A stretch of 64,000 nucleotides of DNA, from the sequence record NZ_CP106961.1, one strand, 5' to 3'. The stretch's first letter is position 1; every line of letters begins with the position of its first letter. Of the stretch, positions 1-10,790 are shown piece after piece. The notes below the pieces were generated by a model. That model worked only from the letters and a program-made list of their open reading frames with translations, searched no databases and had not been told where the DNA came from. Source of the DNA: a plasmid. Position numbers and translations under genes: made by a program.

Positions 1-1462
1 ACCTGGAGAGAGTATTCCGGTCGACGGTATCGTGATCGAAGGCAAAACAACCGTTGATGAATCGATGGTGACCGGGGAGTCTATGCCGGTTACCAAAACG
101 AAGGGTGACCCTGTCATTGGGGGGACGATTAATCAGACAGGTAGTCTTATCATCCGTGCAGAGAAAGTCGGTGATGAAACGATGCTCTCACGAATTGTTC
201 AAATGGTCGCTGATGCACAGCGTTCGCGTGCCCCCATCCAGAGAATGGCTGACAGCGTTTCAGGCTGGTTTGTTCCTCTGGTGATACTTATCGCGGTTGT
301 TGCTTTCGTGATCTGGTCTGTCTGGGGGCCCGAGCCCAGGATGGCGCACGGTCTGATTGCGGCTGTGTCGGTCCTGATTATTGCCTGCCCCTGCGCACTG
401 GGGCTGGCCACACCGATGTCGATAATGGTGGGGGTAGGCAAAGGAGCCCAGGCCGGGGTGTTAATCAGGAATGCCGAAGCCCTTGAACGTCTTGAAAAAG
501 TGGACACGCTGGTTGTCGACAAAACAGGCACGCTCACGGAAGGTTCGCCTACGGTGACAGGGATTATCAGTCTCAATCCGGGTGGGGAAACATCTCTTTT
601 ACGTGTAGCGGCCGCAGTGGAAAAAGGCTCGCAGCATCCGCTGGGTATGGCTGTAGTCCGGGCAGCCCAGCACAGGGGGATCATGATACCCGCAGTCAGT
701 GATTTCAATGCTCCGTCGGGGAAAGGTGTTTCAGGCGATGTTGAAGGTCAACGGGTTGTTATTGGTAATGAACTGGCTATGCAGGAAAACAGTATCGTTA
801 TTGATAATCAAAAGGCCGTTGCGGATACGTTGCGGATGGAAGGCGCTACCGTTATCTATGTGGCCACAGATGGGTACCTTGCAGGCCTGATAGCTATCTC
901 GGATCCCGTGAAAGCAACCACGCCGGATGCGCTTAAAGCTTTGCGTCAGGCGGGGATCCGCATTGTTATGCTCACCGGGGATAACCAGCTTACTGCTGAA
1001 GCAGTCGCACGGAAACTGGGAATAGATGAGGTTGAAGCCGGGGTTCTGCCTGACGGCAAAAAAGCAGTGATAACCCGACTGAAAGCGTCTGGTCATGTGG
1101 TTGCGATGGCGGGGGACGGTGTAAATGATGCCCCGGCGCTGGCAGCGGCTGACGTGGGCATAGCTATGGGAACGGGTACAGATGTGGCAATTGAAAGTGC
1201 CGGAGTCACCCTTCTCAAAGGCGACTTGATGATACTGAACAGGGCCCGTCATCTGTCAGAGATCACCATGAAAAATATCCGACAGAATCTGTTTTTTGCA
1301 TTTATCTACAACGCACTTGGCGTGCCTGTGGCTGCAGGTCTGCTTTATCCTGTGTATGGAATACTGCTGTCGCCAGTTATTGCGGCGGCGGCCATGGCTC
1401 TTTCCTCCGTCAGCGTCATTGTGAATGCGTTGCGTCTGAAAAGTGTCAGGCTCGGGAAATAA
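1..1462 (+). CDS. silP: Cu+/Ag+ P1B-type heavy-metal ATPase, C-terminal ~480 aa; gene starts upstream of window
   Basis: ORF 32..1462 is open to the window edge; TGES, CPC ([12 protein letters not shown]), DKTGTLT and [11 protein letters not shown] motifs; lies directly upstream of the pco cluster as in sil-pco islands. Confidence 0.8.
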
Positions 1463-1502
1463 CACTGAGTGAAGGGTCAGTTACGAACAGAAGGAGTCCA
1501 GT

Positions 1503-1700
1503 ATGAAAAGTACCACCTATGCGCTTATTGCTGTCGCCGCGATCGCGGCATTTGCCCTCCTGCGCGAACACTGGTCACATGTGGCAGGTTACTGGCCATA
1601 TCTGTTATTGCTGGTCTGCCCGCTAATGCATCTTTTCCACGGCCACGGAGGGCATGGAGATCATCAACATCACGGAAGTGAAAACGATAAAAAAAATTAA
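1503..1700 (+). CDS. small membrane protein with His-rich C-terminus (HGHGGHGDHQHHG), pcoF-like putative copper-binding protein
   Basis: 65-aa ORF, one hydrophobic helix then His cluster; position between silP and pcoG as I recall for sil-pco islands. Confidence 0.5.
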   Translation: MKSTTYALIAVAAIAAFALLREHWSHVAGYWPYLLLLVCPLMHLFHGHGGHGDHQHHGSENDKKN

Positions 1701-1733
1701 TCCGGCAGACGGGGCCGCGTCGCGGTCCCGTTA

Positions 1734-2459
1734 TCAGTCCAGGTATCGTTCGTAGTCTCTGACATGCGCAAAGGCATGCTGTTCGAGTTTGTTATCAGCG
1801 GGTGCCGCTGCCCGGAACGCCAGAGAGTTAACAGGGTTGTTATTGATGACCAGCTCGTAATGCAGATGAGGACCGGATGAACGTCCGCTGTTACCGGATA
1901 ACGCAATAGCGTCTCCCCGGGTAACCCTGGCCCCTTTAGTAACGAGTATTTTATTGAGGTGGAGATAGCGAGTTTTAACACCGGCTTTTCCCGTTACTTC
2001 AACAAAATATCCCATGGTACTGTTGTATTCGGCCCGGGTGATTTTTCCGTCGATGACGCTGACTATTTTCGTGTTCATGGGCATGGAATAATCAATGCCA
2101 TTATGGGGACTCACTTTTCCCGATACCGGGTTAAGTCTTGCAGGATTGAAAGGCGAACTGAGTCTTGCTGTGGCCGGTAACGGATAATCGAGACTGCCTT
2201 TCCCGGAAGTATCGGAAAGGTTATAGAACTTTTTATCTGATATACGATACGCCGTGTAATTAAATGAACCGGACGTAAATTTATAGGCCACGACACGTGA
2301 TTTTCCCGCTTTCTTTTGCAGTACGAGTTTTAATGATTCATTTTTTTTCAAATGCCGCAGATTAAACCGGGAAGGCAAGGAGCGCTGAAGAGTAGCGATC
2401 TCGTTCGATTCCAGCCCCGAGCGGGTGGCTGAAAGGTAGGCATTTTCTTTTACGACATC
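1734..2459 (-). pseudogene. pcoG: M23 metallopeptidase pcoG, body of gene severed from its first 4 codons by IS1 composite transposon
   Basis: M23 motifs (HNGIDY, GNSGRSSGPHLHYEL); reading frame stays open upstream of the annotated TTG right to the IS1 boundary at 2459 and resumes on the far side of the composite (10040..10052, ATG TAT TCT ACC) across a 9-bp target duplication. Confidence 0.75.
2451..2459. repeat. target-site duplication TACGACATC (left copy) of IS1 composite transposon
   Basis: matches TACGACATT at 10031..10039 (8/9). Confidence 0.65.
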
Positions 2460-2514
2460 GGTAATGCTGCCAACTTACTGATTTAGTGTATGATGGTGAT
2501 TTTAAGGTGCTTGC

Positions 2515-2790
2515 GTGGCTTCCATTTCCATCAGATGTCCTTCCTGCTCCGCTACTGAAGGCGTGGTGCGTAACGGCAAAAGCACTGCCGGACATCAGCG
2601 CTATCTCTGCTCTCATTGCCGTAAAACATGGCAACTACAGTTCACTTACACCGCCTCTCAGCCCGGTACGCACCAGAAAATCATTGATATGGCCATGAAT
2701 GGCGTCGGATGTCGCGCCAGTGCACGCATTATGGGCGTTGGCCTCAACACGGTTTTACGTCACTTAAAAAACTCAGGCCGCAGTCGGTAA
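2515..2790 (+). CDS. insA: IS1 InsA
   Basis: 91-aa ORF matching the copy B InsA at 8857..9132 (one conservative difference). Confidence 0.85.
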
Positions 2791-3110
2791 CCTGGCGCAT
2801 ACAACCGGGCAGTGATGTGATTGTCTGCGCTGAAATGGACGAACAGTGGGGCTACGTCGGTGCTAAATCACGTCAGCGCTGGTTATTTTACGCATATGAC
2901 AGGATACGGAGGACGGTTGTGGCGCACGTCTTCGGTGAACGCACTCTGGCCACACTGGAGCGTCTTCTGAGCCTGCTGTCGGCCTTTGAGGTCGTGGTAT
3001 GGATGACGGATGGCTGGCCGCTGTATGAATCACGCCTGAAGGGAAAGCTGCGTCTCCGTAGCACGTTATCAGCAAGCGTTACACTCAGCGCATTGAGCGA
3101 CATAACCTGA
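2709..3110 (+). pseudogene. insB: IS1 insB disrupted by 11-bp insertion (premature stop)
   Basis: diverges from copy B InsB after KGKL because of inserted cgtctccgtag. Confidence 0.8.
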
Positions 3111-3259
3111 ATCTGAGACAACATCTGGCAAGGCTGGGACGGAAGTCACTGTCGTTCTCAAAATCGGTGGAGCTGCATGACAAGGTCATCGGGCATTATC
3201 TGAACATAAAACACTATCAGTAAGTTGGAGTCATTACCGGTTTAGTCTATGAATAAACA

Positions 3260-4066
3260 TTAAATAATGTCTACTTCCACCAGAACCCCAAAGTGATCCG
3301 ATACAACCGGATAAAAATCGTTATTAAAAATCACCTGATGCTGCTTTACCACCATCGGTTGATTACTAAGAACCAAATCAATGCGTAGCGCTTGGCTATT
3401 TTGTTCCCAACCGTCAATATTTTTAATTACAGTAGTTCCGGAGTCTTTTATTTCTGCTATTTCATAACAATCTATCAAACCGCACTGTAATACATAATCA
3501 TAACCTTCATTGCGTATATGGCTTGGGTTGTTGAAATCGCCTAATAGAAAGCTCAACTCTGTTGATAATGTTGCCTTTATTCTGTTGAACTGGTCCTCAA
3601 ATGAGCTCTCTGAGTCACTCCACCAGCCGCAATGACAATTATAAAGATTGAAATCACCTCGTTGAGAAGTGACCTTAATACGCACTGCTCGCCTATGTTT
3701 CCAAAAGTTCACATCATAGTTATCACTTAGGTCAATGACCTCATGCTCGACAATCGGCAGTCGCGTCAAGAATGCCAGTCCCTCTTGATATACGTCATAA
3801 CTTTGATGAACGAAATCCCATGTAAGTTGGTAGTGATAGCCGTATTCCATGAGTTTTTTCTGTAATAAATATCCATAGTTATCAGCGAGCACGGTGTGAT
3901 TAGTTAATATATTGGCATCAACAGCCGAGCTATTTTGATGTTGATTCACTTCCTGTAATGCAACGACATCGCACCCTTGCTCGATAATGGCTTGCGCTAC
4001 CACATCCAACTTTTCTAGTTGTTTCTCTTCTTGCCAACTATGGGTATTTAGCGTCATTAACTTCAT
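3260..4066 (-). CDS. endonuclease/exonuclease/phosphatase (EEP) family protein
   Basis: 268-aa ORF with EEP-like motifs (VVALQEVN, SDHFGV at C-terminus); last gene of low-GC sugar operon. Confidence 0.55.
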   Translation of the reverse strand: MKLMTLNTHSWQEEKQLEKLDVVAQAIIEQGCDVVALQEVNQHQNSSAVDANILTNHTVLADNYGYLLQKKLMEYGYHYQLTWDFVHQSYDVYQEGLAFLTRLPIVEHEVIDLSDNYDVNFWKHRRAVRIKVTSQRGDFNLYNCHCGWWSDSESSFEDQFNRIKATLSTELSFLLGDFNNPSHIRNEGYDYVLQCGLIDCYEIAEIKDSGTTVIKNIDGWEQNSQALRIDLVLSNQPMVVKQHQVIFNNDFYPVVSDHFGVLVEVDII

Positions 4067-4152
4067 TTATTATTCACTTATTCATTGTAGCGAGTTAAAC
4101 GCAGCTCAAGGCTGCGTTTCTCGAGGTTATTTTATCTAGGGTAGAGAATGAA

Positions 4153-5781
4153 TTACGCAGGTTGTGCTGAAAACTTCTCAACTAATCTAGATTTAATGAC
4201 ATCCACTCCTGGACCATAAATAACTTGTACTCCCTGTTCTTTAATTACAGCACCAAGTGCTCCTGTCGGCTTCCATAATGCATATTCAGCAACCAACTGC
4301 GGGTCATTAACTGTAATGCGCAAGCGAGTCATACAAGCATCAATCTCAACAATATTGGCACGGCCACCTAAATTCTGAATAATAATGTCCATCTTCTCAT
4401 CTTCTGACATGGATTCTGAACTTTCATCGAGGTAGTTACCCATACGGCCCGGTGTTGGCAATTTAAATTTGACAATGAGCACACGGAATAATCCATAGTT
4501 AACACCAAAGAAAACAATAGAAACCAATGCGAAGCGAACCAAATCACCACCGATTCCCGCTGAAACCATCATAGGTATACGAGTGAGTAACTCAATCAAA
4601 CCAAAGGCATGTATACGTAGGTCCATCACATCGACCAACGCAAATGCAATCCCTGTTAATACCGCATGCGCAACATACAAAACAGGAGCAATAAACATAA
4701 ACATGAATTCAATAGGCTCTGTCACACCGGTTAATAACACAGCAAGACACGCAGATAAAAACATTGGCTTGTATTGTGCGCGCTTATCACTATCAACACA
4801 GTGATACATCGCAAGTCCAATACCAATCAATGAAGACGCTGCGATAATAACTTGGCCCGCTTTAAAACGTGCTGGATGCACCGTATCTAATAGATGTTGG
4901 TAAGTTGTCGGATCGCTTAATTTAAGATTATTTAAATCGCTAACCCAAGCAAGCCATAGTGGATCTTGACCATAAACACTTGCCCCCGCATTCACCCCTG
5001 TTAAAAGCTCATAAGTACCACCCAACTCGGTGTAATTCATTGGAATAGTTAAAGTGTGGTGTAAACCAAATGGCAGTAATAAGCGCTCTAACGTACCATA
5101 CAAGAAAGGAGCAGTGATCGGCGCAGTGTCTTTAGAGGTTGCAATCCATTGACCAAAATCATTAAGCGCACCTTGAATTAAAGGCCATACGATTGATAAA
5201 GCAAACGCAATAATCATCGAATAGAAAATAACAACAAAAGGTACAAAACGCTTACCGTTGAAAAATGCTAATGCCTGAGGTAAGCGAGCGAAGTCATGAT
5301 AACGGTTAAATAAGTTGGCACCTAAATAGCCAGACATAATACCGATAAACACACCCATATTTAGAGCAGGAGCACCCAAAATATTAGTGAAGAATTGAGA
5401 GACAGGTAGCTCAGAACCAAATAGGCTCATCACAACCGCCTCGGGATCACTGAGCATAGCGTTATCCACGCCTAATATAACCCCAGTGATACGGTTAATT
5501 AAGATGAAGGCGATCAGCGCGGCAAATGCTCCTCCTGCACGTTCTTTAGCCCATGATCCACCAATAGCGACAGCAAATAATAGGTGAAGATTAACTATGA
5601 TCCCCCAGCCTATGTTTTCCATAATAGCGCCTAGTGTTTCAATGGCACCAATACCACCAGCATACATTGCGACAACTTTACCGAGTGATATCATGATACC
5701 AGCGGCTGGCATCACCGCGATAACAACGATAAGGGATTTCCCAAATCGTTGCCAAAAATCAAAAGATAGTAACTGACTCAT
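4153..5781 (-). CDS. PTS glucose/alpha-glucoside-family EIICB component
   Basis: 542 aa; multi-TM EIIC domain followed by C-terminal EIIB domain with CMTRLR phosphocysteine motif. Confidence 0.8.
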   Translation of the reverse strand: MSQLLSFDFWQRFGKSLIVVIAVMPAAGIMISLGKVVAMYAGGIGAIETLGAIMENIGWGIIVNLHLLFAVAIGGSWAKERAGGAFAALIAFILINRITGVILGVDNAMLSDPEAVVMSLFGSELPVSQFFTNILGAPALNMGVFIGIMSGYLGANLFNRYHDFARLPQALAFFNGKRFVPFVVIFYSMIIAFALSIVWPLIQGALNDFGQWIATSKDTAPITAPFLYGTLERLLLPFGLHHTLTIPMNYTELGGTYELLTGVNAGASVYGQDPLWLAWVSDLNNLKLSDPTTYQHLLDTVHPARFKAGQVIIAASSLIGIGLAMYHCVDSDKRAQYKPMFLSACLAVLLTGVTEPIEFMFMFIAPVLYVAHAVLTGIAFALVDVMDLRIHAFGLIELLTRIPMMVSAGIGGDLVRFALVSIVFFGVNYGLFRVLIVKFKLPTPGRMGNYLDESSESMSEDEKMDIIIQNLGGRANIVEIDACMTRLRITVNDPQLVAEYALWKPTGALGAVIKEQGVQVIYGPGVDVIKSRLVEKFSAQPA

Positions 5782-5840
5782 AAATGATTCCTTGGTTTAA
5801 ATGCAGGGTAGCCTTATCAAGGCCCTGCGATAAATATAAT

Positions 5841-7574
5841 TTAGTGCTTTCTTGCAAATATATACGCAGCATAAGGTGGGGCAATTTGCGTCGCTATAAA
5901 ATCTGAGCGAACGTGTTCATTGTTGACATTCTGATTATCAAGCATTAACTCGCCTAATTGCATGCGGTCGATATCAACGATGCTCTCTTGTGGACTTAAA
6001 TTGGTAATAATGGTCCATGTCATATCTTGTGCAACACGTTGATAAGCATAGATATTAGGGTCGTTAGGTAGCAGCAATTGATAGCGGCCAACCACTAAAC
6101 TTACATTTGACTTACGCAGAGCAATCAGCTGCTTATAGAAACTCAAAATCGAATTTGGATCTTTCTGTTGTTGCTCAACATTGATATCTGCGTACTGTTG
6201 ATTGACGGAGAACCAAGGTTGCACCTCAGAAAAACCGGCAAAATCCTGCGCATTCCATTGCATTGGCAAGCGACTGTGGTCGCGAGATACTTGATTTAAC
6301 AAGGCTAAGATGTCTGCATCGCTTTGACCTTGTTGAGATAGCTTTTGAATTAAATTTCTAGCAGACACATCATTAAATTCATCAAGAGAAGTAAACTGAT
6401 GATTTACCATACCAATCTCTTGGCCCTGATAAATAAACGGAGTTCCTTTCATCAAGAAATAACAACTCGCTAACGCGGTAGCACTGGCATACCTAGAGGT
6501 AGGGTCGGCAAAAGTATCAATGCTACGAGCTTGATCGTGGTTTTCTAAATAAAGCGCATTCCAGCCTTTACCTTCTAATGCATCTTGCCAACGCGATAAA
6601 ATGCGTTTGAACTCCACTAGATCTAAAGGCACGTTGCTTTGTTCTTCCGACCATAGCTTCATGTGTTCAAACTGAAAAATCATGTTGAAAACACCGCCTT
6701 GATCGTGCTCGGTCGCTTCGGCAACCCAAAGTAATGCATTGTCGGCAGTCACCCCATTAGCCTCACCAACTGTCACTATGTTAAAGGGATCAAACGCCTG
6801 CTCTTTTAACTCATGCAGATGTTTTTCAATCCCTGCCACATTCATATGATAATCAAACGAAGAGACATACTTTTCACCCTTTGGATTGGGTAAAGAAGGT
6901 AAACCTGGTTGTTTCTGAATATGGCTAATTGCATCCACACGGAAGCCATCAATACCACGCTCCAACCACCAATAAATCATTTTAAATAGTGCTTGTTTAA
7001 CTTCAGGATTTTCCCAATTCAGATCAGGTTGTTTTTTTGAAAATAGGTGCAAGTAGTACTGTGCAGTTTTTTTATCATATTCCCATGCGCTGCCATGAAA
7101 AATACTTTCCCAGTTGTTTGGGTCGCAAGTCGGTTTTTCAGCGGTAGGCTCACAACCATCACGCCAAATATACCAATCGCGCTTAGGGCTATTTTTGTTA
7201 TCTCGAGATTCAATGAACCATGGGTGCTCGTCGCTAGTGTGGTTGATCACTAAATCCATAATAATGCGAATGCCACGTTTATGAGCAGCACTGATTAGTT
7301 CATCCACATCCTCAAGGGTTCCAAAGTCAGGATGAATCGCTTGATAGTCACTAATATCGTACCCGTTATCATCATTAGGTGATGCATAGAATGGGCAAAT
7401 CCATATTAAATCAATGCCCAAATCAGCAAGATAATCGAGCTTAGCAATGATGCCATTGATGTCACCAATACCGTCCTGGTTTGTATCATAAAAACTACGG
7501 GGATAAATTTGGTAGGCGGTTGCTTTCTTCCACCACGCGAGTGGTTTTGAGTGCATATTAGGAGCGAGTGTCAT
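5841..7574 (-). CDS. GH13 alpha-glucosidase (trehalose-6-phosphate hydrolase / oligo-1,6-glucosidase-like), cytoplasmic
   Basis: 577 aa; QIYPRSF, GIDLIWICPF, DLVINHTSDEH, GFRVDAI motifs of alpha-amylase family; no signal peptide. Confidence 0.8.
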   Translation of the reverse strand: MTLAPNMHSKPLAWWKKATAYQIYPRSFYDTNQDGIGDINGIIAKLDYLADLGIDLIWICPFYASPNDDNGYDISDYQAIHPDFGTLEDVDELISAAHKRGIRIIMDLVINHTSDEHPWFIESRDNKNSPKRDWYIWRDGCEPTAEKPTCDPNNWESIFHGSAWEYDKKTAQYYLHLFSKKQPDLNWENPEVKQALFKMIYWWLERGIDGFRVDAISHIQKQPGLPSLPNPKGEKYVSSFDYHMNVAGIEKHLHELKEQAFDPFNIVTVGEANGVTADNALLWVAEATEHDQGGVFNMIFQFEHMKLWSEEQSNVPLDLVEFKRILSRWQDALEGKGWNALYLENHDQARSIDTFADPTSRYASATALASCYFLMKGTPFIYQGQEIGMVNHQFTSLDEFNDVSARNLIQKLSQQGQSDADILALLNQVSRDHSRLPMQWNAQDFAGFSEVQPWFSVNQQYADINVEQQQKDPNSILSFYKQLIALRKSNVSLVVGRYQLLLPNDPNIYAYQRVAQDMTWTIITNLSPQESIVDIDRMQLGELMLDNQNVNNEHVRSDFIATQIAPPYAAYIFARKH

Positions 7575-7642
7575 CGGTTATACTATATGTGTTATCGTTA
7601 ACATATATAGTTAAGTAGAACCGATTTGGACTCAACACAATT

Positions 7643-8608
7643 TCAGAGGAATTGTGAGCTTTCTCTCATCTTTATGTCGAATGTGCCTTCAACAGAACTG
7701 AAATCGCGCTTGAGCAATTTTTTGACAGCTTGGTAGCCCACTTGATAGTAGTTAAAAGCGACAGTCGTCAGGCTCGGGACTAACAAATCGCTGTAGTCAT
7801 AGTCACCCATGCCTACAATCCATACGTTATGACCGATCTTGAGTTGCTGTTCTTTGGCGCGACGATATAAACGAATGGCAATATTATCGGTGGCACAAAA
7901 GTAGACATGATTAGGCTGTAATTGAACGGCCTGATAGCCAGCTTTGTCCTCCGAGTTGGCTAGGGCTTGTAGTGATAAATTCAACTCAGGGACGGTGTCG
8001 GTAATAGTGGCTTGCATCAACTTAGTGCGGCTAGAAAGCATACGCTCATCATAAATATAATGTACGGCAGCCAGCGGTGCCTGCTGCTGTTTTAACTGAG
8101 TGATGGTGTGGGAGACGAGGGCTTTAATCGCTGCATGATCGGGGTAATATAAACAGCAATGGTGGGGGGTATTTTTGCCAATAAATACCACATTGTCTAA
8201 GGTTCGATAAAAAGTCTCTTCGACACTGTGCTTTGACGCAATAATAATCGTGCCCAATGCATTTAAGCCGTTAAACTCTCTCACAGCTTGGCATTCTGAC
8301 TCATGGTTAAACCCTGTGGCATGAAACAGCATTCGTACTTGTGATTCATTGGCAGCAGCCAGCGCCCCTTTAATCACTAAACTGGTCGTATATGACTCAA
8401 TACGAGGCGCGATGAAACCAATAATATTGGATTGGCTACGAATGGAGCGAGCAAATATATTAGGCGTGTAATGACTCTCTTTGACGATGGCATCAATTTT
8501 AAGGCGGTTCTCTTCCGAGACATAACCGCCATTAAAGTAACGCGACACAGTCATTGTTGAAATTCCAAGCTGCCTTGAAATCTCAGCCATGGTCATTTTT
8601 TTACTCAT
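7643..8608 (-). CDS. LacI-family transcriptional regulator (TreR-like) of the glucoside operon
   Basis: N-terminal HTH MAEISRQLGISTMTVSRYFNG plus periplasmic-binding-fold sugar domain. Confidence 0.8.
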   Translation of the reverse strand: MSKKMTMAEISRQLGISTMTVSRYFNGGYVSEENRLKIDAIVKESHYTPNIFARSIRSQSNIIGFIAPRIESYTTSLVIKGALAAANESQVRMLFHATGFNHESECQAVREFNGLNALGTIIIASKHSVEETFYRTLDNVVFIGKNTPHHCCLYYPDHAAIKALVSHTITQLKQQQAPLAAVHYIYDERMLSSRTKLMQATITDTVPELNLSLQALANSEDKAGYQAVQLQPNHVYFCATDNIAIRLYRRAKEQQLKIGHNVWIVGMGDYDYSDLLVPSLTTVAFNYYQVGYQAVKKLLKRDFSSVEGTFDIKMRESSQFL

Positions 8609-8856
8609 TACCTATTTCCTTCAATAATGCACTATTGCCATATCTCCAAGTGACTTCAAGATACAGAATTCAGAGTTGAGTCACTTGGGCATAGTATCCA
8701 ATATATTGGCTAACAACACAGTAAATAAAACTGGGTGGACGTATGAGTGTTTAATTTTCACTCACAAGATTTAGACCTGAACTCAAGACCAAGGAGCGAG
8801 CGGTAATGCTGCCAACTTACTGATTTAGTGTATGATGGTGATTTTGAGGTGCTCCA

Positions 8857-9132
8857 GTGGCTTCCATTTCCATCAGATGTCCTTCCTGCTCCGCTACTGA
8901 AGGCGTGGTGCGTAACGGCAAAAGCACTGCCGGACATCAGCGCTATCTCTGCTCTCATTGCCGTAAAACATGGCAACTACAGTTCACTTACACCGCCTCT
9001 CAGCCCGGTACGCACCAGAAAATCATTGATATGGCCATGAATGGCGTCGGATGTCGCGCCAGTGCACGCATTATGGGCGTTGGCCTCAACACGGTTTTAC
9101 GTCACTTAAAAAACTCAGGCCGCAGTCGGTAA
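8857..9132 (+). CDS. insA: IS1 InsA
   Basis: 91-aa ORF. Confidence 0.85.
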
Positions 9133-9554
9133 CCTCGCGCATACAACCGGGCAGTGATGTGATTGTCTGCGCTGAAATGGACGAACAGTGGGGCTACGTC
9201 GGTGCTAAATCACGTCAGCGCTGGCTGTTTTACGCGTATGACAGGATACGGAGGACGGTTGTGGCGCACGTCTTCGGTGAACGCACTCTGGCCACACTGG
9301 AGCGTCTTCTGAGCCTGCTGTCGGCCTTTGAGGTCGTGGTATGGATGACGGATGGCTGGCCGCTGTATGAATCACGCCTGAAGGGAAAGCTGCACGTTAT
9401 CAGCAAGCGTTACACTCAGCGCATTGAGCGACATAACCTGAATCTGAGACAACATCTGGCAAGGCTGGGACGGAAGTCACTGTCGTTCTCAAAATCGGTG
9501 GAGCTGCATGACAAGGTCATCGGGCATTATCTGAACATAAAACACTATCAGTAA
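9051..9554 (+). CDS. insB: IS1 InsB (made as InsAB' by -1 frameshift)
   Basis: 167-aa ORF typical of IS1. Confidence 0.85.
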
Positions 9555-9569
9555 GTTGGAGTCATTACC

Positions 9570-10030
9570 AAAAACTCAGGCCGCAGTCGGTAACCTCGCG
9601 CATACAACCGGGCAGTGATGTGATTGTCTGCGCTGAAATGGACGAACAGTGGGGCTACGTCGGTGCTAAATCACGTCAGCGCTGGCTGTTTTACGCGTAT
9701 GACAGGATACGGAGGACGGTTGTGGCGCACGTCTTCGGTGAACGCACTCTGGCCACACTGGAGCGTCTTCTGAGCCTGCTGTCGGCCTTTGAGGTCGTGG
9801 TATGGATGACGGATGGCTGGCCGCTGTATGAATCACGCCTGAAGGGAAAGCTGCACGTTATCAGCAAGCGTTACACTCAGCGCATTGAGCGACATAACCT
9901 GAATCTGAGACAACATCTGGCAAGGCTGGGACGGAAGTCACTGTCGTTCTCAAAATCGGTGGAGCTGCATGACAAGGTCATCGGGCATTATCTGAACATA
10001 AAACACTATCAGTAAGTTGGAGTCATTACC
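9570..10030 (+). mobile_element. partial IS1 (3' 461 bp) in tandem with copy B
   Basis: starts abruptly at AAAAACTCAGGCCGCAG (internal IS1 sequence) directly after the copy B end; sequence appears identical to copy B 3' part; truncated insB ORF 9620..10015. Confidence 0.85.
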
Positions 10031-10039
10031 TACGACATT
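10031..10039. repeat. target-site duplication TACGACATT (right copy)
   Basis: pairs with 2451..2459. Confidence 0.65.
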
Positions 10040-10052
10040 CGGTAGAATACAT
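10040..10052 (-). other. pcoG: displaced pcoG start codon plus first codons (MYST) and upstream promoter region, separated from gene body by the composite transposon
   Basis: minus-strand TAA ATG TAT TCT ACC continues in frame into GAT GTC GTA at 2459. Confidence 0.55.
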
Positions 10053-10340: not shown

Positions 10341-10790
10341 TTACCTGGTCGAATACAGCCCGCGAAGCTTTCTTGCCTGCGTCTGATGTGCTTCCGCACC
10401 GGCATTATTGACCTGCTCATGCACGAGAGCGGCTTTTTCTCCGGCATTCAGTTCGTTAAAAGAAGAAGACGAGGTCTTTGAATTTGCATCACTGCCGGAC
10501 AGCATTTTTTTATGTTCCTCAATCATTTTCTGATGCGCATAGGACGCGCTGTTGTTCATAAATGAATGAGCAACAATGGCCCTTTCATGTTCATTCATTT
10601 CAGAGAATGAGGGCGTGTTGTTTTTATTAACCCTGTCCGGTAAGTTTTCATGCGTCGAGGAGTTCACATGACTGACGGCTGAGGCATTATTAACAAATCG
10701 ATGTGCTTCATGGGCAATATCACTGGACTGAGCAAAAGCTGCCCCACAAAATAAAGCTGTAAACGCAGTGGTCGTGATTAATATATTCAT
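10341..10790 (-). CDS. pcoE: periplasmic His/Met-rich copper/silver-binding protein, PcoE/SilE family (pcoE1)
   Basis: signal peptide, MNEHER and AHQKM-type repeats as in SilE/PcoE. Confidence 0.7.
   Translation of the reverse strand: MNILITTTAFTALFCGAAFAQSSDIAHEAHRFVNNASAVSHVNSSTHENLPDRVNKNNTPSFSEMNEHERAIVAHSFMNNSASYAHQKMIEEHKKMLSGSDANSKTSSSSFNELNAGEKAALVHEQVNNAGAEAHQTQARKLRGLYSTR

Follow-up and report, generated by a model that had tools for sequence, protein, structure and literature searches.

In transposons of the Tn9 type, directly repeated copies of IS1 bracket a passenger and a 9-bp duplication of the target marks the insertion; Tn9 itself is an IS1R composite transposon (PMC8957301). 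A closer relative is the version carried by plasmid pL21-1NR, named Tn6732b in 2022 and presented as a cryptic IS1F composite transposon related to Tn6732a (PMC8957301). We describe an element of this kind in 64,000 nucleotides of a Leclercia multi-metal-resistance plasmid (NZ_CP106961.1); this whole stretch is referred to as the window, and position 1 is its first letter. In the window, an IS1-flanked composite unit lies inside pcoG, a gene of the sil/pco copper-silver island. The arrangement is that of Tn9, with direct IS1 copies and a 9-bp target duplication, whose right copy has one extra base in the window; the passenger, in contrast to that of Tn9-type elements, is not a resistance or toxin gene. 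It is a catabolic operon built around a phosphotransferase system (PTS), apparently from a marine gammaproteobacterium.

Two further systems are relevant to the comparison. The site of insertion corresponds to the pcoF-pcoG unit of CHASRI, where both genes are co-transcribed from the copper-inducible, PcoRS-controlled promoter PpcoF (Staehlin et al. 2016, PMC4824010). The window keeps the CHASRI order of silP, a DUF2933 gene, pcoG, pcoF, and divergent pcoABCD, but its pcoG is cut after codon 4, and the gene body lies about 7.6 kb from pcoF and PpcoF. The passenger has a described counterpart in Enterococcus faecalis: according to PMC3737437, which cites Mokhtari (2013), MapP is an EEP-family maltose-6'-phosphate phosphatase whose gene directly follows the maltose PTS gene.

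The window element and Tn6732b of pL21-1NR (record L005) share the pcoG site, the TACGACATC duplication, and the flanking IS1 copies, and their cargo is 100% identical over the aligned parts. They differ in their integrity. In Tn6732b, the PTS gene is interrupted by a further divergent IS1-family element, and both flanking IS1 copies are intact at 768 bp; in the window, the PTS gene is intact, the left IS1 is a defective 779-bp form, and a 461-bp partial IS1 and an extra T are present as well. We infer that the window element corresponds to Tn6732a/b or is a close variant of it. The element has already been designated and is present in several public records; in this sense, the finding is known. 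The additions made here are a Vibrio-like source, a specific proposal for the function of the cargo, an independent IS1 hit at the same pcoG site, and 3 lineage-specific defects of the window copy. They leave the understanding of IS1, of PTS systems, and of the pco/sil island unchanged. Their value is partly one of annotation: current records treat the shortened pcoG as an ordinary gene, and the label "cryptic" stands on a cargo for which a specific function can be proposed.

A composite unit after codon 4 of pcoG

The transposon landed after codon 4 of pcoG and duplicated a 9-bp target, TACGACATC, which makes up codons 5-7 of the gene. The gene body (codons 5-245 and the stop codon; minus strand, 1734-2459) encodes an M23 metallopeptidase (Pfam Peptidase_M23, 2e-27, and Csd3_N2). 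It is collinear with the intact pcoG of R478 at 99.4% identity, and it sits between the silP and DUF2933 genes on one side and pcoF on the other, as expected of a CHASRI pcoG. The first 4 codons, ATG TAT TCT ACC, are orphaned at 10052-10041 on the minus strand and match the start of R478 pcoG, which continues without a break (ATG TAT TCT ACC GAT GTC GTA AAA). The unbroken R478 site reads ...TTTTACGACATCGGTAGAATACAT..., and the annotated 245-aa protein begins MYSTDVVKENAY. A continuous frame from MYSTDVVK is absent from the window, where 7,571 bp of IS1 and cargo stand between codons 4 and 5. The left copy of the duplicated target occupies 2451-2459; the right copy, at 10031-10040, reads TACGACATTC and carries one added T.

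The empty site is abundant among plasmids. A query of 233 nt across the rejoined junction, searched against plasmid records, matched 2,582 of them, including 2,338 at at least 99% identity; R478 is one of these. A sequence-only reading of the window had placed the split after codon 4, and this holds: R478 pcoG is identical to the gene that it reconstructed, and the 2,338 records carry the site uninterrupted. The same records, together with R478, exclude the contrary case, in which intact pcoG would begin at the TTG at 2378 behind unrelated upstream sequence.

The sequence-only reading also stated that the frame is restored once 2460..10030 and one copy of the repeat are removed. In the window, this does not occur. 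Literal excision yields ATG TAT TCT ACC GGA TGT CGT..., a +1 frameshift, and the rejoined product reads MYSTGCRKRK... before an early stop; base 10040 had been dropped from the earlier reconstruction. Intact records measure 232 nt at the rejoined junction, against 233 nt in the window-derived query. Excision from the window copy would thus not restore pcoG, because the right repeat has the extra T. Since the restoration fails by this one base, the earlier observation is only partly confirmed; the interpretation drawn from it is supported. The 9-bp repeat fares in the same way: it is perfect in seven sister plasmids, and only the right copy of the window departs from it.

The extra T lies at window position 10039 and is found neither in the empty site nor in the seven sister plasmids. 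Either a genuine mutation or a homopolymer error could account for it. An upstream ATG (MLTANSSKCILPDVVK), in frame after the first rejoining of the window, was considered as the start of pcoG and rejected; in intact R478 that frame contains stops, the protein begins at MYST, and the apparent frame arises from the extra base in the right repeat.

IS1 copies, sister plasmids, and the route of insertion

The unit contains 3 IS1 pieces, all in direct orientation on the plus strand. Copy A (2460-3238) forms the left arm; it is 779 bp long and has both terminal repeats. What sets it apart from copy B is a total of 8 substitutions and one insertion of 11 bp. The insertion lies at about 3050-3060 (GCGTCTCCGTA, as placed by the aligner) and frameshifts insB. 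Copy B (8802-9569) is a complete 768-bp element; its insA and insB frames are open, it carries the A6C motif, and it is the likely source of transposase, judging from these intact frames. Copy C (9570-10030) is a partial element of 461 bp, an exact repeat of 9109-9569 (IS1 positions 308-768), and it provides the outermost terminal repeat on the right. The outer terminal inverted repeats are intact (2460-2482 and 10008-10030), with arms that are 87% complementary. The call of an IS1 composite transposon is well founded in the direct copies A and B, the empty site, and the outer inverted repeats. The picture of simple IS1 arms is not: the right arm is a complete copy joined to a partial one, and the left arm is defective.

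Seven public plasmids, six from Leclercia and one KPC plasmid of Enterobacter mori, hold the identical insertion with a perfect 9/9 TACGACATC duplication and have neither the extra T nor the partial IS1. The left IS1 varies across the cargo-bearing plasmids. The defective 779-bp form is common to pLEC-5e18, pE1_002, the E. mori plasmid, and QDSM01 p2 (L001, L002, L006, L007); an intact 768-bp form occurs in pL21-1NR, pZ96-1_3, and pLA-109 (L005, L009, L010); the copy in pYUSHP29-2 has a 16-bp deletion. Two other plasmids (L007, L008) hold the IS1-cargo-IS1 module in other surroundings, and across the nine plasmids that hold the cargo it is 99.96-100% identical. Among the insertion-bearing plasmids, the right flank, on the pco side, is at least 99.8% identical. 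The left flank, on the silP side (window 1-2459 compared with L005, L009, L010, and L011), separates the plasmids into two groups that are about 2.3% apart. This pattern suggests, as the simplest account of the flank comparison, one insertion followed by recombination within the sil region.

The same pcoG site has also been struck by IS1 alone. Klebsiella pneumoniae plasmid pCARKWA (L092 3546-4313) carries a lone IS1 at the exact position, in the same orientation, and with the TACGACATC duplication; this IS1 is only 88.8% identical to that of the window. Since pCARKWA holds an independent lone IS1 there, TACGACATC appears to be a recurrent IS1 target. The lone copy also lends some credit to a two-step origin, in which a single IS1 would have hit pcoG first and produced the 9-bp duplication, with the cargo and the second IS1 arriving later by IS1 recombination, whether through integration of an excised IS1-cargo circle or through resolution of a cointegrate. 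Other features fit such a course: direct-repeat IS1 copies permit excision and re-integration, the modules in L007 and L008 lack a duplication and show that recombination or rearrangement takes place around IS1 copies, and the left and right copies stand 8 substitutions apart in the window lineage. The pCARKWA element is, however, too divergent to be an ancestor and represents a separate event. At the site, only the 7 cargo-bearing plasmids and pCARKWA were found, and no plasmid holds the matching IS1 isoform alone. In L005, L009, and L010, moreover, both flanking copies are intact, and each lies within 5-6 positions of window copy B; because of this closeness, a single composite event is favored, and we regard the two-step origin as unlikely.

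We therefore return to the composite transposon. The empty site in thousands of plasmids, the perfect 9-bp duplication in seven sisters, the intact outer inverted repeats, and one intact IS1 together make it very probable that a Tn9-style composite transposon, the published Tn6732a/b or a close variant, moved a Vibrio-like operon into pcoG. There is good support for the unit having moved into pcoG as a whole. One functional IS1 suffices for the movement of an IS1 composite; with both outer terminal repeats and one intact IS1 retained, the unit should, on these sequence features, still be mobile.

Several points weigh against this account. Comparison with L007, L008, and ET220 revealed no second site that holds the whole unit with a duplication of its own, the sign expected of repeated movement as a unit: in L007 the flanks, GAGTTGAAG and CGTTTATTC, differ and there is no duplication, and in L008 the left IS1 is truncated. 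The duplication in the window is imperfect (9 nt against 10 nt). A flanking duplication is also compatible both with one-step transposition and with a single IS1 insertion followed by IS1-IS1 recombination. Finally, errors of assembly could have produced both the partial IS1 and the extra T.

This last point bears on how the window itself is read. If both features were assembly or consensus errors, the true sequence would be a plain Tn6732a-type insertion with a perfect duplication. The features are absent from the seven relatives, and copy C from all related plasmids compared; the junction between copy B and copy C, located within the A-run of the IS1 frameshift motif (CATTACC followed by AAAAACTCAGG), has 0 matches at 100% in PLSDB. 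Moreover, the extra base extends a run of T, a common error of long reads, and repeated IS copies are a classic place of misassembly. Over 25 kb, the remainder of the window is nevertheless about 100% identical to pE1_002 and pLEC-5e18, as expected of a generally accurate assembly, and the 461-bp repeat is exact and starts precisely at an IS1 end, as IS1-mediated rearrangements yield. We hold an artifact to be possible but less likely than not. The exact start at the IS1 end suggests instead that copy C came from an IS1-mediated rearrangement between sister copies. In such a history, the window lineage would have gained, after insertion, the 11-bp insertion that killed the transposase gene of the left copy, the 461-bp partial IS1, and the extra T.

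A Vibrio-type operon and its proposed function

The cargo is a four-gene operon of Vibrio type on the minus strand (3239-8801; 5,563 bp). Its GC content of 41.4% is lower than that of the left flank (51.8%) or the right flank (49.2%), in agreement with the earlier estimate of about 40% and a value below the surroundings. The genes and their order are also as first described. The first gene encodes a LacI-family regulator (7643-8608; Pfam LacI and Peripla_BP_3). It is followed by genes for a GH13 alpha-glucosidase, cytoplasmic and predicted to be alpha-1,4-specific (5841-7574; Pfam Alpha-amylase, 6e-152), for a 542-aa PTS EIICB permease of the glucose/maltose family (4153-5781; Pfam PTS_EIIC and PTS_EIIB), and for an EEP-family protein, proposed here as a MapP-like maltose-6'-phosphate phosphatase (3260-4066; Pfam Exo_endo_phos).

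A scan of one genome per species points to the source. The full set of four genes recurs, in unchanged order, in Vibrio splendidus 12E03, where the DNA is 92.0% identical over window 3253-8643 and the four proteins are 92-96% identical to those of the cargo, with 96% for the LacI-family regulator. For the GH13 protein, identity declines through Psychromonas (87-88%), Photobacterium (78-80%), and Enterovibrio (75%); the next best matches, in Bacillaceae and other distant taxa, reach 53-59%. The closest EEP proteins likewise bear Vibrio names (V. maritimus, 94%; V. crassostreae, 91%). By these identities, the cargo is from a Vibrio-like bacterium, and the suspicion of foreign capture, with its guess at Vibrionaceae, is upheld by the match in V. 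splendidus. The element provides a textbook case of an insertion sequence that carries a metabolic operon from Vibrionaceae to Enterobacteriaceae and into a resistance island; in this manner, metal-resistance plasmids collect catabolic traits too.

The operon also occurs in the chromosome of Escherichia coli ET220, at 99.6% identity, where it reaches about 190 bp and 8 bp past the ends of the window cargo. V. splendidus 12E03 itself was rejected as the exact donor, since it has no match to the extra cargo flanks of ET220 or to the flanks that ET220 has in common with the window. In ET220 (L003 5043-12625), the operon belongs to a chromosomal island, where a different IS1 lies on one side and ISKpn26 on the other, with type I restriction-modification genes next to it; the extra flank of about 190 bp matches neither the window nor V. 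splendidus.

What the operon does can be proposed from its enzymes. The permease scores 829 bits against TIGR02003, a model of glucose/maltose-family EIIBC proteins with a cutoff of 650, and it retains the EIIB cysteine motif IDACMTRLRI. Neither the Pfam domains of the 542-aa permease nor the open reading frames of the cargo include an EIIA. Related EIICB permeases are charged by the host EIIA-Glc, and, because the cargo encodes no EIIA of its own, this permease would have to use that of the host.

The GH13 protein finds its best solved relatives in the alpha-glucosidases 2ZE0 and 5ZCB (about E 1e-210 and about 700 bits, 702), ahead of oligo-1,6-glucosidase (1e-167, about 560 bits). Its region II reads GFRVDAISHI, with alanine after the nucleophile, as in 2ZE0 and 5ZCB. 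Alanine at this position marks alpha-1,4 rather than alpha-1,6 specificity. No signal peptide was found in the protein, and the LacI-family regulator reaches the cutoff of no NCBIfam equivalog.

The remaining gene is the one that the sequence-only reading listed simply as encoding an EEP protein. The only solved relative of the EEP protein is the uncharacterised PDB entry 3TEB (6e-45), with the QEVNQ, GDFN, and SDHFG motifs aligned. JGI, UniRef, or NCBI give the name maltose 6'-phosphate phosphatase to homologues that share 43-83% identity with it, and in every locus compared the EEP gene lies directly after the PTS gene. The order of GH13, PTS, and EEP genes is kept in 28 loci that span two phyla and beyond, 7 gammaproteobacterial and 21 distant and mostly from Firmicutes; the distant loci include the Bacillus cereus group, Tepidibacter, Alkalithermobacter, Clostridium, Melghirimyces, and Ilyobacter. 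A phosphatase would fill a gap in the pathway, because a PTS delivers phosphorylated sugar and an alpha-glucosidase of this kind rejects it. We propose that the EEP protein is a MapP-like phosphatase, as its gene neighborhood and homologue names suggest.

Taken in sequence, the proposed route would run as follows. The EIICB permease, charged by the host EIIA-Glc (Crr), would import maltose or short maltooligosaccharides as the 6'-phosphate; the EEP protein would strip the phosphate, as MapP does in E. faecalis; the cytoplasmic GH13 alpha-1,4-glucosidase would then split the free sugar to glucose; and the LacI-family protein would repress the operon. To our knowledge, a route of this PTS-phosphatase-glucosidase type has been characterised only in Enterococcus.

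The likeness to the MalT-MapP system of E. faecalis is one of arrangement and of logic: in both, an EEP-family gene comes immediately after the gene for a glucose-family PTS permease (PMC3737437), and a phosphorylated disaccharide would have to lose its phosphate before a free-sugar enzyme could act on it. The systems diverge at both ends of the route. MalT is an EIICBA protein (PMC3737437), whereas the window permease is an EIICB that would have to borrow its EIIA from the host. The enzyme at the downstream end is, in the window, a GH13 alpha-glucosidase encoded in the same operon. In E. faecalis, the corresponding enzyme is maltose phosphorylase.

A second function has to be weighed, since PTS operons with GH13 enzymes need not include a dephosphorylation step. 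The cargo could be a trehalose-type or other phospho-sugar operon, in which GH13 hydrolyses the phosphorylated product in the manner of TreB/TreC and the EEP protein is unrelated. The GH13 protein just reaches the NCBIfam phosphotrehalase subfamily model (535.1 against a cutoff of 535), and TreR is among the weak hits of the LacI-family regulator; yet GH13 stays far under the cutoff of the TreC equivalog (576 against 799, NCBIfam). Its 702 bits against non-phospho alpha-glucosidases compare with about 470 bits against the solved GH13 structures 5BRQ and 5BRP, which we take to be trehalose-6-phosphate hydrolase. The resemblance of the PTS protein to trehalose EIIBC models is confined to its EIIB domain, and EEP and PTS genes keep a strict linkage in different phyla. 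This makes a phospho-sugar operon improbable.

The maltose route is, by contrast, a reading in which we place moderate confidence: on these predictions, the cargo would be a LacI-repressed PTS-phosphatase-glucosidase route for maltose or maltooligosaccharides. The earlier description as an alpha-glucoside PTS operon is accurate for the gene set; the cargo looks like a maltose route in need of its phosphatase rather than a generic operon with an unrelated EEP gene. Some observations count against the proposal. The EEP protein is not represented by any NCBIfam model, a search for LacI-type palindromes around 7560-7660 and 8600-8810 gave none, and the only paper that names the element calls Tn6732b cryptic (PMC8957301). 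For the wider statement, that the "cryptic" cargo of Tn6732 is a working maltose route native to Vibrionaceae and now being spread by IS1 through the metal-resistance plasmids of Leclercia, Enterobacter, and E. coli, we consider the case evenly poised.

Expression of pcoG and the surrounding island

Since pcoF and pcoG are co-transcribed, the insertion cuts the pcoG body off from PpcoF as well as from its ATG. The sequence-only reading had placed both the start codon and the promoter 7.6 kb from the body; the distance is right, and the promoter concerned is PpcoF, upstream of pcoF. Read toward IS1, the pcoG frame meets a stop at 2477-2475, inside the element, and has no ATG, GTG, or TTG ahead of the TTG at 2378. 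No promoter-like site facing pcoG was found, including outward from IS1 copy A. Read-through from the sugar operon into pcoG is possible, because no terminator-like site was found between the EEP gene and pcoG. From these sequence features, pcoG is probably silent or at best weakly expressed. The public annotation speaks for the opposite: RefSeq/PGAP calls the shortened pcoG as an ordinary 243-aa gene, not a pseudogene (L001 4496-5227). The start that PGAP assigns to this product is an ATT inside the IS1 terminal repeat (window 2463-2465).

The intact PcoG protein (245 aa; L004 1868-2605) aligns only to MepM residues 193-410. It starts with MYSTDVVK and has no apparent signal peptide or membrane anchor, which is odd for a peptidoglycan endopeptidase.

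The genes around the insertion retain their places in the island. The 3' part of silP (32-1462, plus strand) opens the window and is followed by the DUF2933 gene (1503-1700, plus strand). On the far side of the element, pcoF (10341-10790, minus strand) encodes a SilE-like periplasmic metal-binding protein and is the upstream partner of pcoG in the PpcoF transcript; the protein matches NCBIfam SilE at 1.5e-22, under the cutoff, and its counterparts in related records are annotated as copper resistance protein. The divergent pcoABCD genes lie beyond it. The rest of the window (14001-64000) is about 100% identical to the Leclercia plasmids pE1_002 and pLEC-5e18, and the annotation of these plasmids for this region lists pcoRS, ars, chrA, ter-type genes, and hmpA, together with several IS elements (ISPpu12, IS4321).

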